In this document: piece after piece, positions 3,761 through 48,664 of the stretch
Layout: every line of letters begins with the position of its first letter
Position numbering within the stretch: position 1 is the first letter of the stretch
Assembly: GCA_035295165.1 (NCBI GenBank)
Contig: DATGJN010000117.1
Coordinates: forward strand, 24,114-88,113
Origin: a bacterium
GTDB taxonomy: Bacteria; Sysuimicrobiota; Sysuimicrobiia; Sysuimicrobiales; Segetimicrobiaceae
Length of the DNA stretch: 64,000 nt
Direction of reading: 5' to 3'
Translations under genes and position numbers: made by a program
The notes under the pieces: model-generated
Told to the model about the DNA's origin: nothing
The model's input: only the letters and a program-made list of their open reading frames with translations
The model's database searches: none

Positions 3761-4687
3761 GTGGAGCTGCGACATCTGCGCTATTTCATCGCCGTCGCCG
3801 AGGAGCGGCACGTCACCCGCGCCGCGGCGCGGCTCGGGATCCAGCAACCTCCGCTCAGCCAGCAGATCCGGGCGCTCGAGCGGGACCTTGGCGCGCAGCT
3901 GTTTCATCGACAGCCGCGAGGGGTCGAACTGACGGACGCCGGCCATGCCCTCCTCGCCGACGCACGCGCGATTCTCGCGCTCGTCGATCGCGCGGCTGCC
4001 GCCGTCCGGCAGACCGCGGCGGGCCTGCGCGGTCGTGTCGCTGTCGGCTTCACCAGTTCCGCGCCGTTCAATCCGTTTGTGCCGCGCGTCATTCGCGCGT
4101 TTCGCGAGGCGTGCCCGGATGTGTCGTTGACGCTGGAGGAGAACGGGACCGCCGATCTCGTGCAGGACCTGCGCAGCGGCCGCGTCGACGCGGCGTTCAT
4201 CCGCTCCCCGATCGCGGACGCGCCGGATTTGGTCGTGCGAGCGCTCCTCGACGAAGCCATGATCGTCGCGCTGCCGACGGCGCACCGTCTGGCGCGCGCG
4301 GCCGACCGCGACGAGGCGGCGCTGCCGCTCCGAGCGCTCGCCGCGGAGACTTTCATCCTGTATCGTCGGCCGAGCGGACCAGGTCTCCACGACGCGATCA
4401 TCTCGGCGTGTCGCCGCGCGGGCTTCAGCCCGAACATCGGTCAAGAGGCGCCGCTGATCGTGTCCACGCTCAATCTCGTGGCCGCCGGGCTCGGGGTCTC
4501 AATCGTCCCCGCGTCACTCCGTCGCCAGCGCATGGACGGTGTCGTCTACCGGCGCATCGGGGCCCGGCCGCGACTGCGGGCGCCGATTCATCTCGCGTCT
4601 CGACGAGACGAGCATTCCGCCGCTGCTCGGCGGTTCATCGACCTCGTCGACCGCCTCCGGCGCGGCAGCCGGCGGGCGCGGGAATGA
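3761..4687 (+). CDS. LysR-family transcriptional regulator
   Basis: N-terminal HTH MELRHLRYFIAVAEERHVTRAAARLGIQQPPLSQQIRALE and a C-terminal LysR substrate-binding domain. GTG start at 3761. Confidence 0.85.
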   Translation: MELRHLRYFIAVAEERHVTRAAARLGIQQPPLSQQIRALERDLGAQLFHRQPRGVELTDAGHALLADARAILALVDRAAAAVRQTAAGLRGRVAVGFTSSAPFNPFVPRVIRAFREACPDVSLTLEENGTADLVQDLRSGRVDAAFIRSPIADAPDLVVRALLDEAMIVALPTAHRLARAADRDEAALPLRALAAETFILYRRPSGPGLHDAIISACRRAGFSPNIGQEAPLIVSTLNLVAAGLGVSIVPASLRRQRMDGVVYRRIGARPRLRAPIHLASRRDEHSAAARRFIDLVDRLRRGSRRARE

Positions 4688-43770: not shown

Positions 43771-46050
43771 TCACTCGCGGAGCTGGGCCCCGGCCTCCGT
43801 GCGTAGCGCTATTCGGACCTGTAGCATAATTTCCTCTGCCTCCTCGGCAACCAGCGTGCGGTCGGGCGCCCGCAACCGCAGCCGGTAGGCAAGGTTGCGG
43901 TGGTCCCGCGGGATCGGCGCGCCGGTGTACACGTCGAACAGGTCGATCGCTTCGAGCAGCGGCCCGGCCGCCGCGCGAATGATCGCTTCGACCCGGCCCG
44001 CGGGCACCGTCTCCGGCAGGACCACGGCGAGGTCGCGTTCGATTTCGGGGTAGCGCGGCAGGCCGGTGAACGTGCGAGCCGGCACGAGCGATCGCGGCAC
44101 GGGCGGGACGGGCATCTCGTCGCTCACGCGGTCGTCGCCTCCTCGACCGCCGGCGAGCGCGTACAGCGCTTCGAGATCTATCTCCGCGAGATACGCACGG
44201 TGCGGCAGTTTGTGCGGCGAGGCGAGATCCGGATGCAGCTCGCCGAATCGTGCGACGAGCCGGTCGCCGATCCGGACCTCCGCCGAGCGGCCGGGATGCC
44301 ACCACCCCGCGCGGCTCAACGAGGGCGGATCTCCGCTCCCAGCGGAAGCGGGTCGCTGCCGCTCCGCGGACTCACGGACCTCCGCCACCTCGTGTGCCGG
44401 GACCGCGAGCTCGGCCAACAGCGCATCCAGGATCCACCGAAGGTGGTAGAAGTCCACGACCGCCTGATCCGCCGGCACGTTCCATCCGGCGCGCCAGCGG
44501 CCTGTCGCGGCGATCGCCAGGCTGCGCCGCTCGTCGGGACCGCTGCCCGCGCCCGGTAAGAACACACGGCCGAGTTCGAACACCTGCGCATCCGCGATCC
44601 GCCGCGCGGCGTTGGTGGCGAGCACCGCCAGCGCCCCGGGGATCAGCGATCGGCGGAGCGCGTTGTGGTCCTGGGTCAACGGATTCGCGATTGCGACGAG
44701 CGGCTCGGTATCGTCGGCGTCCGGCGCGGCGCGGACCAGCGTGAGCGTCATCGCTTCGACGAGGCCGCAGCGTGTCAACACGTCGCGCACGCGCCGGTCG
44801 GTCGCCAGCGCGGGCGCCACGCTCCCGGGCGTCGTGTCCCCGATGGGCAGCGTGGGTGGGACGCGGTCGTAACCGTACACGCGGATGACTTCTTCGATCA
44901 GGTCTTCCTCCACCACCACGTCCGGCCGAAATGTCGGAGCCTGCACGGTCAGCGCGCGGCCAGGCGTCACCCGGCATCCGAGCGCACGGAGAATGCGGAC
45001 CATCTCACGAGGAGCGATCTCAACGCCCAGCACCGACACCGCTCGGTCGGGTCGCAGACGGATCGTCTTCGGGGTCACCAGTCGAGGATACACGTCCACC
45101 ATGCCGGGGAGCACCCGTCCGCCGGAGGTCTCAGCGACAAGCACCGCGGCCCGCATCTGCGCCCGCGGCGGCCCGTTCGGATCAGCGCCCCGTTCGAACC
45201 GTGCGCCAGCCTCTGTGCGCACGCCCAACCGGCGTGCGGCGCGCCCGATCACGAGAGGATTCCAGTACGCGGCCTCGAGGAGGACCGTCGTCGTGCGCGG
45301 CCCGATCTCCGTGTCCGCGCCGCCGATGATGCCGGCGATCGAGACCGACCGCCGATCGTCGGCGACGACTAGCATCTCGTCGTCGAGCGCCCGTGTGACC
45401 CCGTCGAGCGTCTCCAGCGTCTCGCCCGGCCGCGCACGCCGCACGACGAGCCGGTGTCCGGCGACGGCGTCGTAGTCGAATGCATGCATCGGCTGACCGG
45501 ACTCCAGCATCACGTAGTTGGTCACGTCCACGATGTTGTTGATCGCGCGGACGCCCGCGGCCTCGAGCCGGCGCTGCATCCAGGCGGGCGACGGCCCGAC
45601 GCGAACACCCTCGATCACCGTGGCGGTGAACCGGGGGCACCCCACGGCGTCCTCGACGTCGACCCGCACCCGATCCTCGGCCGTCGCGCGCGCCGCGGCC
45701 GCGGCAGCCCCGATGGGGGCCGCCCCACGGCGCGGGGATGTGGCCGCTCGGCCGGTCCGCCGGCGCGGACGGGCCAGCGACGCCCCTTGCCGCCCCTCCG
45801 TCCGCGGGTCGGGGTAGCCGTGGGGATAGCGCAGCGGGTGGCCGAGCAGCAGCGCGACCTCGCGGCCCACCCCGAGCACGCTCATGCAGTCGGGACGGTT
45901 GGCCGTCACCTCGAGGTCCAGCACCACGTCGTCGGCGACGTGCGCGATCTCCTCGGCCGGAAGCCCGACCCCCGCAAGGCGCTCCGCAAGCACTTCGGGC
46001 GCCACACCCACCGTCACGTACTCCCGCAGCCAGTCAAGCGGTACCCGCAT
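43771..46050 (-). CDS. pheT: phenylalanine--tRNA ligase beta subunit (short form, no N-terminal EMAP/tRNA-binding domain)
   Basis: MRVPLDWLREYV..., B3/B4 region (ANRPDCMSVLGVGREVA), B5, and a C-terminal anticodon-binding domain. ATG at 46050 with GAGGGGAG RBS. Confidence 0.93.
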   Translation of the reverse strand: MRVPLDWLREYVTVGVAPEVLAERLAGVGLPAEEIAHVADDVVLDLEVTANRPDCMSVLGVGREVALLLGHPLRYPHGYPDPRTEGRQGASLARPRRRTGRAATSPRRGAAPIGAAAAAARATAEDRVRVDVEDAVGCPRFTATVIEGVRVGPSPAWMQRRLEAAGVRAINNIVDVTNYVMLESGQPMHAFDYDAVAGHRLVVRRARPGETLETLDGVTRALDDEMLVVADDRRSVSIAGIIGGADTEIGPRTTTVLLEAAYWNPLVIGRAARRLGVRTEAGARFERGADPNGPPRAQMRAAVLVAETSGGRVLPGMVDVYPRLVTPKTIRLRPDRAVSVLGVEIAPREMVRILRALGCRVTPGRALTVQAPTFRPDVVVEEDLIEEVIRVYGYDRVPPTLPIGDTTPGSVAPALATDRRVRDVLTRCGLVEAMTLTLVRAAPDADDTEPLVAIANPLTQDHNALRRSLIPGALAVLATNAARRIADAQVFELGRVFLPGAGSGPDERRSLAIAATGRWRAGWNVPADQAVVDFYHLRWILDALLAELAVPAHEVAEVRESAERQRPASAGSGDPPSLSRAGWWHPGRSAEVRIGDRLVARFGELHPDLASPHKLPHRAYLAEIDLEALYALAGGRGGDDRVSDEMPVPPVPRSLVPARTFTGLPRYPEIERDLAVVLPETVPAGRVEAIIRAAAGPLLEAIDLFDVYTGAPIPRDHRNLAYRLRLRAPDRTLVAEEAEEIMLQVRIALRTEAGAQLRE

Positions 46051-46061
46051 CGGCGCTCCCC

Positions 46062-47087
46062 TCAAACCTGCCGCAGAAAGCGGAGATCGTTCTCGTAGAA
46101 CAGCCGGATGTCGTCGATCCGGTGTCGGAGCATCGCGGGCCGCTCCACGCCCATGCCGAACGCGAACGCGGTGTAGCGTTGCGGATCGATCCTGGACATC
46201 TCGAGGACGCGGGGATGAAACATCCCGCAGCCGAGGATCTCAAGCCAGCCGGACCGCTTGCACACGGCGCACCCCCGGCCGCCGCAGATCACGCAGGAGA
46301 TCGCCATCTCCGCGCTCGGCTCCGTGAACGGGAAGTACGACGGCACGAACCGCGCGCGGGTCTCCGGTCCGAAGAACGCCTGGGCGAAGTGCAGCAGCAC
46401 GCCTTTGAGATCCGAGAAGCGCACCCCCTCACCGACCATGAACCCGTCGACCTGCTGAAACATCGGCGAGTGACTCGCGTCCACCGGGTCGCGCCGGTAG
46501 CAGTGCCCGTACGAGATCGCCCGCATCGGTGGGCGGCGGCAGTCCATGACGTGCACGTCCACGACCGTCGTGTGCGTGCGCAACAGCCACTCGCCCCCGA
46601 GGTAGAACGAGTCTTGCGCGTCGCGCGCAGGATGGTACGGTGGCATGTTCAGCCGCTCGAAGTTGTCGTGGTCGCGCTCGACCTCGGGGCCCTCGACGAC
46701 TTCGAACCCGAGCCCGAGGAAGATCTGCGCGACGTCCTCCATCGCTCTCGACAGCACGTGCGTCCGGCCCGACGCAAGCGGACGCCCGGGCAGCGTGACA
46801 TCGATCCGCTCGTCCGCGAGCCGTGTCTGTCGCCCCGCAGCCGCCAGCGTCTCCGCGCGGCGCTGGACGGCGTCCTCGACTGCGGCTTTCAGCGCGTTCA
46901 GCACCTGGCCGAGCCGGGGACGGTCCTCCGCGGACGCGCGCCCGAGCGCCCGGAACGCCTGGGCGATGACGCCCTGGCGGCCGAGATATCGGACGCGCAC
47001 TTCCTCCAGCGCCGTCTCCGTCGTGGCGTCCCTGCACGCCTGCTGCGCCTCGCGCTCGATCTCCGGGATCCGGTCCAACTCCGTCAT
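46062..47087 (-). CDS. pheS: phenylalanine--tRNA ligase alpha subunit
   Basis: MTELDRIPEIEREAQQ... with class II motifs 1-3 (FPFTEPSAE, GMGVERPAML). ATG near 47087, plus or minus 1-2 nt, with GGAGGAGGG RBS. Confidence 0.9.
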   Translation of the reverse strand: MTELDRIPEIEREAQQACRDATTETALEEVRVRYLGRQGVIAQAFRALGRASAEDRPRLGQVLNALKAAVEDAVQRRAETLAAAGRQTRLADERIDVTLPGRPLASGRTHVLSRAMEDVAQIFLGLGFEVVEGPEVERDHDNFERLNMPPYHPARDAQDSFYLGGEWLLRTHTTVVDVHVMDCRRPPMRAISYGHCYRRDPVDASHSPMFQQVDGFMVGEGVRFSDLKGVLLHFAQAFFGPETRARFVPSYFPFTEPSAEMAISCVICGGRGCAVCKRSGWLEILGCGMFHPRVLEMSRIDPQRYTAFAFGMGVERPAMLRHRIDDIRLFYENDLRFLRQV

Positions 47088-47126
47088 GCGCCCTCCTCCG
47101 GCGCGCTGCGGCGCGTCCGGTTCGGC

Positions 47127-47395
47127 AACAAAAAAACGCACCTCCGTCCAAGGGACGGAAGTGCAGCTTCCGCGGTCCCACCCTTCTTCCGCCCGCGATC
47201 GTAGGGCCGCGGACGACACTCGATGCACCCCGGGGTACGGGCCGGGCGCCCTGTCTGCCTACAGGCGGCGATCCGCCGCGGTCAGCACACCGCTCGGGAG
47301 TGAACGTGCGCGGCGAGGAACGCGGGCCGGCTCGCAGTCGGTGACCGGCCCTCCCTTGGCGCCGCGATCTCGCGCACCCTCTCCGTCATCGCAAA
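47127..47395 (-). ncRNA. T-box riboswitch leader of pheST: Stem I (GCGAUGACGGAGAGGG...), T-box sequence AGGGUGGGACCGCGG (47170-47184), intrinsic terminator (11-bp stem CACUUCCGUCC/GGACGGAGGUG plus U7, 47129-47164)
   Basis: Reverse complement read directly: GAAGAAGGGTGGGACCGCGGAAGCTGCACTTCCGTCCCTTGGACGGAGGTGCGTTTTTTTGTTGCC, about 40 nt upstream of the pheS RBS. Confidence 0.6.
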
Positions 47396-47435
47396 ACAAC
47401 TCGCTGCGATTGCCCGCCGACCCGGCGTCGTCGGG

Positions 47436-47564
47436 TCAGTTCAGGATCGGCACGATCCAACGCGGATGCCGCGTCGTGAGCTGTCGGTACAGCAGATACG
47501 CCCAGACGGAACCCGTGGTCTCGAATACGCGCCAGAAGCACTCCGGCGTCCACGTGATCTCCAC
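47436..47564 (-). CDS. candidate 42-aa small protein (V/MEITWTPECFWRVFETTGSVWAYLLYRQLTTRHPRWIVPILN), Trp-rich, lower local GC
   Basis: GTG start 6 nt after AGGAGGGG. Extended -10 TGTTATACT at 47650-47658 upstream. Not in the 60-aa-minimum ORF track. Composition unlike GC-driven spurious ORFs. Confidence 0.35.
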   Translation of the reverse strand: MEITWTPECFWRVFETTGSVWAYLLYRQLTTRHPRWIVPILN

Positions 47565-47706
47565 CGCGCCCCTCCTGCGTGCCACGTACGTTTCTGGGGG
47601 CCCCGAAGGAAACGACCGCCGTCGCGGATGGCCCTCTGAGGTTGGTCCCAGTATAACACAGCCTCGCTGGCTGCGTCACGCACTCAGCCGCGGCGGGTAG
47701 CTGTTC

Positions 47707-47752
47707 AATGATTTTGTCACCCCGGAACTGCTCAGTGATTCTGTCACCCTGG
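47707..47752. repeat. tandem 19-bp imperfect direct repeat (AATGATTTTGTCACCCCGG / AGTGATTCTGTCACCCTGG, period 27 bp); each copy contains a CRP/FNR-like GTGA-N5-TCAC half-palindrome
   Basis: Seen directly. Positioned about -45 to -95 relative to the putative TSS of the small-ORF promoter. Confidence 0.4.
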
Positions 47753-47790
47753 GAGGATGGACAGGGAGACGATCACCGGACGCGCGTGCG

Positions 47791-48603
47791 TTAGGACAGA
47801 CCCGCGGCGCGGTAGAGCAGAATCGCCGCCGCAGCGGCGACGTTGAGCGACTCCACACCGTCCGCGATCGGGAGGCGCACGGCCTCGGCGCCGGCGCGCC
47901 ACCACGCTGCGTCGGCGCCCGCGCCTTCGTTGCCGAAGATCATCGCCAGCGGCCGATCGAACGACGCCTCGGCGACCAGCCGCCCGCCGCGCGGGGCCGC
48001 CACCAGCAGCCGAACGCCTCGCCGGCGCAGCTCCTCGGCGGCCGTCGCGGCGGTCGCCGCGTGCAGGAGCGGCATGCGGAACGCCGTGCCCGCGGATGCC
48101 CGCAGCGCCTTCGCACCGAACGGATCCGCCGCGCCGCCGACCGTCACCGCGCCCGTCGCCCCGACGGCCGCAGCGGTACGCAGAATCGCCCCCACATTTC
48201 CGGGATCCTGGACGGCGTCGAGCACGACGAGCAGCGCGTCCGGCCGGTCCAGCTCGGAGGGGGACGCCGGCGCGGGCCTCCGCGCGATCCCGAGCGCGCC
48301 CTGAGGCGTCTCGACCTGCGCCACCGCGGCAAACACGTCGCGCGCGACGAGTACTTCGCGCGCGCCCAGCGCCTGCAGATCTCGGCGCAACGGCGCGTAA
48401 CGCGCATCGCCGGCGGCGTCGGGCGTGTAGACGACGGCCTCGAAGCGTGCACCGGCCGAGGCGGCGGCGGCGAGCGCGCGCCACCCCTCAACGGCCACGC
48501 GGTCCGCCTCCCGGTGCGGCGAACGCAGCAGCGCGCGCAGATCGCGGATGAATGGATTGCCGCGGCTCGTGATCACGACACCCGACCGTGCCAGAGAGCG
48601 CAT
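47791..48603 (-). CDS. TrmH/SpoU-family RNA 2'-O-methyltransferase (RlmB-like)
   Basis: SPOUT motifs (LVVLDAVQDPGNVGAILRTAAAVGA; IFGNEGAGA; LNVAAAAAILLYR). Confidence 0.8.
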   Translation of the reverse strand: MRSLARSGVVITSRGNPFIRDLRALLRSPHREADRVAVEGWRALAAAASAGARFEAVVYTPDAAGDARYAPLRRDLQALGAREVLVARDVFAAVAQVETPQGALGIARRPAPASPSELDRPDALLVVLDAVQDPGNVGAILRTAAAVGATGAVTVGGAADPFGAKALRASAGTAFRMPLLHAATAATAAEELRRRGVRLLVAAPRGGRLVAEASFDRPLAMIFGNEGAGADAAWWRAGAEAVRLPIADGVESLNVAAAAAILLYRAAGLS

Positions 48604-48664
48604 ACACAAGGCCCTCCCCGTGTTTGGGGAGGGCCCTCCGCGCGCATCGCGTGCACGTCCGCGG

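Follow-up and report, generated by a model that had tools for sequence, protein, structure and literature searches.

The window examined in this work is a stretch of 64,000 nucleotides from a bacterium of the Segetimicrobiaceae. Its minus strand carries, in the 5′ to 3′ direction of that strand, a gene for a SpoU/TrmH-family RNA methyltransferase (47791..48609, recognised by the Pfam SpoU_methylase domain of its orthologues), a small gene of 42 codons plus TGA (47436..47564), a T-box leader (47130..47392), pheS (46062..47087) and pheT (43771..46065). The methyltransferase gene is an upstream neighbour and is given for context; it lies outside the unit discussed below. The limits of pheT come from the list of ORFs and from the loci of relatives. 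For pheS, tblastn aligns residue 1 of the 341-residue product, read from the ATG at 47087, with the pheS starts called in relatives, and the Pfam matches of the orthologues agree with the assignment. The mechanical ORF list over-extends pheS by 47 codons to a GTG at 47228 (46062-47228, minus strand), through the terminator of the T-box. The true start, ATG 47087, is preceded by GGAGGAGGG. The called pheS start at one related locus (L001, position 5158) is over-extended in a similar way.

The small gene runs on the minus strand from a GTG at 47564-47562 to a TGA at 47438-47436, and its product is MEITWTPECFWRVFETTGSVWAYLLYRQLTTRHPRWIVPILN, of 42 amino acids. A Shine–Dalgarno sequence, AGGAGGGG (47569..47576), can be read directly upstream, with a gap of 6 nucleotides between AGGAGG and the GTG. 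It is kept as GGAGGGG in close relatives, and 19 of 20 distant loci have a Shine–Dalgarno-like motif of at least 4 bases before the start that was chosen for them. The original prediction was of a 42-codon ORF with a promoter-like site and a ribosome-binding site, and direct reading of the sequence finds all three where they had been placed. The composition argument that accompanied it holds less well. Five Trp had been counted where the peptide has four (W5, W11, W21 and W36), Arg had been called scarce in a peptide that carries four, and the codons, said to be AT-ending, are in fact 86% GC-ending. The GC content by codon position is 52% (GC1), 50% (GC2) and 86% (GC3) in a window of 70% GC. 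Coding sequences of a genome with 70% GC normally show this profile, which supports a coding region better than the earlier argument did. An alternative start that would give 49 amino acids (GTG 47585) was considered and rejected: it has no Shine–Dalgarno sequence, the homologues are 42-43 amino acids long and the in-frame translation upstream is not conserved. An exact-sequence look-up of the 42-residue peptide returned no match, and NCBIfam holds no model that matches it.

Is this ORF spurious? Long ORFs are common by chance in DNA of 70% GC, several, in different frames and on the complementary strand, cover the same place, and the Pfam match reported below is marginal. A related possibility is that what is conserved is an RNA element, e.g. 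a T-box that reaches further upstream, or else a gene on the opposite strand. The pattern of substitution speaks against all of these. Among 11 unique close DNA sequences the mean pS is 0.49 and the mean pN 0.08, with a median dN/dS of 0.10 in the yqzL frame, and the start codon in the alignment is GTG at all the close-clade loci examined. Among 96 unique core DNA sequences from related loci the entropy at the three codon positions is 0.63, 0.27 and 1.47 bits, a pattern that persists over genomes of 36-72% GC, and the fourfold-degenerate sites of the invariant T, G, S and A are almost saturated. Eight residues other than Phe do not vary in any of the 96; the extraction pattern itself imposed four of these eight. 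Such near-saturation of third positions and fourfold sites points to selection on the peptide, not on an RNA motif. Furthermore, the length and the start position of the ORF are conserved, Rfam has no match in 47560-47800 at E up to 10, and related 5′ UTRs share only a weak RNA structure. It had been proposed that the absence of a conserved reading frame in related genomes would refute the gene; what was found is a conserved frame. We consider the spurious and RNA-based readings to be extremely improbable, and in effect already refuted by the substitution pattern. Judged by its conservation, the ORF is a genuine small-protein gene, and its translation is predicted on the same grounds.

Which protein does it encode? 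The peptide matches the Pfam family YqzL (PF14006) with 28.7 bits against a gathering cutoff of 27, a small margin of 1.7 bits (E = 1.6e-6), with residues 11-29 on profile positions 4-22. The aromatic/TG core of the family, W..F..TG....YL.[YF][KR], is present in the window peptide as WRVFETTGSVWAYLLYR, and its W, F, T, G, Y and Y do not vary among 68 family members. Six close homologues were found in a large protein database; all are 42-43 amino acids long and 81-88% identical, and one is named ‘YqzL family protein’ by NCBI. The same NCBI name is carried by homologues in Halothermothrix, Thermincola, Sporomusa, Heliophilum and others, so as a kind the gene is not an unannotated one, as had been suggested earlier. 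An exhaustive profile search gave 101 clusters at 50% identity, mostly of 29-36 amino acids, with the consensus ..AEFFW[RK]xFExTGS[IV]xAYLxY[RK]. When the pheS-linked family (alignment A3) is compared by hhalign with 12 real Bacillaceae YqzL (A10), the two align over 27 columns with a probability of 96.4% and E = 1.1e-9. The Bacillaceae probes (A6 and A7) were composed sequences that served only to retrieve real proteins; the homology test itself used real sequences.

From the alignment of close homologues, AF2 predicts a helix at residues 7-17, a turn at the TG and a second helix at residues 20-31. The mean pLDDT is 96 for residues 11-20 and 90 for residues 21-30, and the lineage-specific tail has low confidence. 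Neither Foldseek against the PDB nor an HMM search of PDB sequences gave a meaningful match for the helical hairpin. By its family match and its modelled fold, the window protein is a 42-residue helix-turn-helix microprotein of the YqzL family. That family is known but uncharacterised, and its type member is B. subtilis YqzL. As a gene call the result is ordinary, because this is a new member of a known family. The 60-aa cutoff of the ORF list explains how such a routine gene was missed.

The members of PF14006 share the core F-x-W-x-x-F-x-x-T-G-x-[IV]-x-x-Y-L-x-[YF]-[KR] and range from 29 to 47 amino acids, and they differ in their tails and their neighbours. Bacillaceae YqzL has 47 amino acids and an acidic tail (...ELEKEN...ELAExDFPIS), and its gene lies in the order ybeY-dgkA-cdd-era-yqzL-recO-glyQS. 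In contrast, YqzL of the window type has TGS, AYLxY[RK] and a short basic or hydrophobic tail, and its gene lies between a SpoU methyltransferase gene and T-box-pheST. In the clade of the window there is an extra tail of about 12 residues, ...RHPRW[IV]VPILN, that is specific to the high-GC lineage. The era-yqzL-recO context of the type member, which we see in two Bacillaceae loci (L111 and L112), is absent at the window; it is not a formal requirement of the family. Because the gene has the SpoU methyltransferase-yqzL-T-box-pheS context and not era-yqzL-recO, we assign it to a distinct, pheS-linked subfamily. The extended C-terminus that occurs in a subset of the family (P0012, P0019, P0022, P0033, P0051, P0059 and the window clade) always ends in ...[LI][SL]LN or ...PILN before the stop codon. 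This terminal Leu-Asn is conserved within a tail that AF2 models with low confidence.

The linkage to pheS is nearly universal. At every close locus with enough sequence the order is infC-rpmI-rplT-SpoU methyltransferase-yqzL-pheS-pheT-cvpA-polX. At one of these (L002) the upstream genes have been replaced by transposases, yet yqzL is still joined to pheS. In a scan of one genome per species, pheS-pheT lies directly downstream in 16/16 loci, which come from uncultured Bacillota, Clostridiales, Selenomonadales and Dendrosporobacter. A metagenome scan, seeded with a 10-sequence subset of short, low-GC family members, found pheS downstream in 65/70 loci that have at least 700 nucleotides of downstream sequence, and a SpoU methyltransferase gene upstream in 55/66 that have at least 900 nucleotides upstream. 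The cultured Halothermothrix orenii (strain H168, CP001098.1, about 611.8-612.3 kb) and Thermincola have the same gene order, with pheS-pheT downstream. Synteny with pheS had been suggested as a check on the small gene, and these counts bear it out.

The region between the methyltransferase gene and yqzL is less constant. In the closest relative (L013, with a peptide 93% identical to that of the window) the spacer is about 370 nucleotides long, where about 140 is otherwise found, and contains a match to the Rfam Transposase-2 RNA (RF03015) at 3810-3876, with 44.8 bits against a gathering cutoff of 42.7. Transposase genes occupy the same spacer in L002 and L008. Together these observations mark the spacer upstream of the conserved promoter as a variable insertion site. 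In some lineages from fermentation metagenomes (L030, 2234-2307, and L037, 2242-2315) a tRNA gene, not a SpoU methyltransferase gene, lies about 200 nucleotides upstream of the small ORF.

Between yqzL and pheS lies the T-box leader (47130..47392, minus strand). Its Stem I starts with GCGAUGA at 47392. The ORF had been said to end 44 nucleotides before Stem I; the two are indeed adjacent, with an actual gap of 43 nucleotides from the stop codon. Direct reading gives the Phe specifier UUC at 47304-47302, followed by an A (47301), in the sequence ACG-UUC-A on the 3′ side of Stem I. The T-box sequence itself, AAGGGUGGGACCGCG, is at 47185-47171 and aligns with the T-box sequence of the Rfam model. 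A terminator of 13 base pairs followed by a U-run lies at 47165-47137, and is the only one that a consensus scan finds in 46900-47900. The leader thereby has the features that define its class, a T-box sequence in an antiterminator set against a terminator and a specifier that matches the regulated aminoacyl-tRNA synthetase. It shares with the pheST T-boxes of Firmicutes the Stem I, the UUC specifier, the T-box sequence and the antiterminator/terminator hairpins before pheS. The Rfam T-box model (RF00230), in contrast, reaches just 25.1 bits on the window against a gathering cutoff of 93 (E = 0.0024, over 47224-47151), as this copy is too divergent and GC-rich for gathering. Since the match is limited to the 3′ third of the model (positions 156-216), the T-box call rests on direct reading and on orthology; the orthologous leaders of 20 lower-GC relatives do reach gathering.

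The same model misses the pheS leader at its gathering cutoff throughout the clade of 67-72% GC (window 47130-47392 and L013-L019), where the hallmarks of a T-box are nonetheless readable. Annotation of high-GC Bacillota has a blind spot here. At some loci the gap between yqzL and pheS, at about 80-150 nucleotides, is too short for a full T-box (L009 5130-5262, L019 2859-2977, L020 4088-4214 and L006 5130-5290; also L094, L101 and L107). The gap has no Rfam match in L019 and L020, and L006 keeps a T-box-like sequence, AGUAGGACCGCGG, and a terminator with Stem I seemingly absent. Even at loci that have lost all or part of the riboswitch, the small ORF remains joined to pheS.

Upstream of the ORF is a promoter-like site, with a -35-like hexamer GTGACG (47674..47679, minus strand) from the consensus scan and, after an 18-nucleotide spacer, an extended -10, TGTTATACT (TGn + TATACT; 47650..47658), found by direct reading and by the scan. 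This site, GTGACG-18-TATACT with an upstream TG (47679..47650), is the sole one in 46900-47900 according to a scan that detects sigma-70-type consensus sites, and shuffled sequence has a mean of 0.1. CTGTGyTATACT is kept in 7/8 sequences of the close-clade alignment A1, the window included; the exception, L006, has its own TGGTATACT closer to the ORF. From the position of the -10 we infer a start of transcription at about 47643, and with it a predicted 5′ UTR of about 79 nucleotides (47565..47643) that includes a sequence block kept in close relatives and a small UUCG-type hairpin. A structured RNA in the 5′ UTR and ORF region was considered and set aside: besides the empty Rfam search, the RNAalifold consensus is weak, at -8.4 kcal/mol for the 5′ UTR. 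The UUCG-type hairpin (47590-47612) is kept in relatives, with other bases in its stem (UCC-UUCG-GGG in the window and CUCC-GUUC-GGAG in L001). The fold given by RNAalifold has CCUUC paired instead with the GGAGG of the Shine–Dalgarno sequence, a possible anti-Shine–Dalgarno pairing within an overall weak consensus.

Further upstream on the minus strand are two tandem 21-nucleotide direct repeats, GGTGACA[G/A]AATCA[C/T]TGA[G/A]CAG (47701-47721 and 47728-47748), that are 27 nucleotides apart and centred about 60-90 nucleotides upstream of the predicted transcription start. Each contains a GTGA-N5-TCA[C/T] half-palindrome. The window has no other copy (0 expected by chance), and the closest relative, L013, lacks them. 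They could be an operator or the remnant of a mobile element.

Are the small gene and pheST transcribed together? The original prediction held that no separate promoter for the T-box is evident and that co-transcription may follow. The first point stands, given the single site of the scan and its place upstream of the ORF, and the second is well supported by comparing the positions of promoters and T-boxes. In the 20 loci whose leaders reach the Rfam gathering cutoff, position 1 of the T-box model falls between 11 nucleotides before and 36 nucleotides after the last base of the ORF stop. The T-box thus abuts the stop codon, which leaves no room for a promoter between them. A near-perfect TTGnnn-17/18-TGnTATAAT ends about 35-65 nucleotides before the ORF start in 20/20 of these loci, with one outlier at 120, and nothing comparable occurs inside the ORF of the same loci. 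For 93 unique loci we required TGn plus at least 5/6 of TATAAT, and found such an extended -10 within 170 nucleotides ahead of the ORF in 91/93. From the ORF through 25 nucleotides past the stop it occurs in 6/93, a background frequency, as control windows further upstream have it in 5/91. A T-box promoter embedded in the ORF was rejected on these counts.

The simplest reading of these positions would be that pheST is transcribed from the promoter ahead of the ORF and that the ORF occupies the 5′ part of what is usually T-box leader. Textbook T-box leaders begin a few tens of nucleotides upstream of Stem I. Here, in contrast, the sole conserved promoter lies about 150-250 nucleotides upstream, and a conserved ORF that is predicted to be translated fills the interval. 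Extended to the relatives, yqzL is very probably the first cistron of the pheST operon in many Firmicutes.

That said, a GC-rich hairpin without a U-tract overlaps the stop codon of the window ORF (47417..47439, minus strand). It is seen in single-sequence folds and is not scored as a terminator. A hairpin of 6-9 GC base pairs, different in sequence each time, occupies the same place right after the stop in most members of the high-GC clade. The hairpin may act as a weak or U-less terminator, a pause site, a processing site that splits the two parts or a stabiliser. As a conserved, aligned structure it was rejected, with an indel-rich alignment and several single-sequence folds that only marginally beat shuffled sequences. 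High-GC bacteria often terminate transcription without a U-tract, and a few loci (the same 6/93, e.g. L025) do have an extended -10-like match inside the ORF or the gap. These points would fit two units, a monocistronic small gene that ends at the hairpin and a T-box-pheST unit with a promoter of its own, so far unrecognised, inside or after the ORF. We regard this arrangement as unlikely. In the window nothing promoter-like was found from 47564 to 47392, and the internal matches are at background. The lower-GC relatives lack both the hairpin and the room for a promoter. The hairpin of the window, without its U-run, folds only about 1 standard deviation better than shuffled sequence.

A different question, given a single transcript, is whether the product of the ORF or the act of translating it is what matters. 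The original prediction had left open a small protein or a regulatory upstream ORF; of these the second is the less likely option. The ORF could be a cis-acting leader peptide, whose translation, more than its product, tunes pheST. A shortage of Phe-tRNA might make ribosomes stall at the conserved Phe codons, or a ribosome that terminates next to Stem I might affect the folding of the T-box or the stability of the leader. In E. coli, pheST is controlled by the Phe-rich leader peptide pheM, and the likeness to the window is plain: in both, pheST is preceded by a short ORF with Phe codons and, after that ORF, by a transcription terminator. The FFWxxF core has Phe in 85%, 95% and 100% of the 96 sequences at its three Phe positions. 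Furthermore, with the stop codon abutting or overlapping position 1 of the T-box model in the 20 loci, the footprint of a terminating ribosome would be expected to extend over the 5′ strand of Stem I at many of these loci.

However, the residues other than Phe (W, E, T, G, S, A, Y and Y) are at least as conserved as the Phe. Together with the near-saturated fourfold sites, this argues for selection on a folded peptide and not on the identity of codons. The window peptide itself has C-F in place of F-F. Its two Phe (F10 and F14) are not adjacent, and no cluster of regulatory codons overlaps the hairpins. The ORF ends 43 nucleotides before Stem I and about 270 nucleotides before the terminator, so it cannot overlap the alternative hairpins as classical attenuators do. 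pheM has 14 codons, five of them Phe, and overlaps alternative hairpins, whereas the window ORF has 42 codons with two Phe, shows the conservation of a folded peptide and has a whole tRNA-sensing T-box between itself and the terminator. Conservation is not limited to regulatory codons either, as the dN/dS of 0.10 and the homologues away from any aminoacyl-tRNA synthetase leader indicate; in Bacillaceae, yqzL is flanked by era and recO and is not directly followed by a T-box. Bacillus-type Firmicutes largely uncouple translation from transcription, and a T-box makes its decision while the RNA is still being transcribed, which also tells against this reading. On the features of the ORF, the leader-peptide reading fails to show what defines attenuator peptides, and we consider it improbable.

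The reading that we favour, and with some confidence, is a translated YqzL microprotein gene that would form the promoter-proximal cistron of a yqzL/T-box/pheS/pheT transcription unit. In this model RNA polymerase would initiate at the conserved extended -10 promoter, at about 47643, and transcribe the small ORF first and the Phe-specific T-box immediately after it. With charged tRNA-Phe, transcription would stop at the T-box terminator (about 47130), giving an RNA of about 510 nucleotides with the complete microprotein ORF; uncharged tRNA-Phe would stabilise the antiterminator and let the same transcript extend into pheST. As the terminated RNA retains the whole ORF, the microprotein would be made whenever the promoter fires and PheRS conditionally. 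The microprotein probably acts in trans, because the folded hairpin is conserved, the Bacillaceae homologues have no adjacent T-box and the window has C-F where F-F is usual.

We also put forward, more tentatively, a broader hypothesis that we think doubtful but worth stating. The pheST T-box leader of many Bacillota may be a dual-function RNA, at once a tRNA-sensing riboswitch and the mRNA of a microprotein of 30-40 amino acids, so that even the leader in its off state would be productive. The microprotein might be tied to the charging of Phe-tRNA, e.g. by binding PheRS, tRNA-Phe or the ribosome, or its translation might feed back on the stability of the leader or the folding of Stem I.

In the searchable literature we found nothing relevant on YqzL/PF14006, or on a conserved translated ORF inside a T-box leader transcript; the gene belongs to a known family, and we did not find its arrangement described there. 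In most of the carriers examined outside the Bacillaceae, this family of about 30 amino acids sits between a well-conserved extended -10 promoter and the pheST T-box. These carriers include Negativicutes, Halanaerobiales, Thermoanaerobacterales, heliobacteria and soil MAG lineages. We regard this promoter-microORF-T-box-pheST architecture as a moderately interesting lead. If the co-transcription predicted here is correct, the T-box ‘leader’ RNAs of the pheST operon would have to be counted as coding, a connection with PheRS and translation would be the first clue to what YqzL does, and annotators would have a simple synteny rule with which to locate yqzL.

A final observation concerns the Bacillaceae loci. 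In L111 and L112 yqzL lies about 35 nucleotides upstream of recO, which is followed by glyQ-glyS, an operon that is under T-box control as well. In both of its contexts, then, the family has an operon for an aminoacyl-tRNA synthetase close by, perhaps by coincidence.
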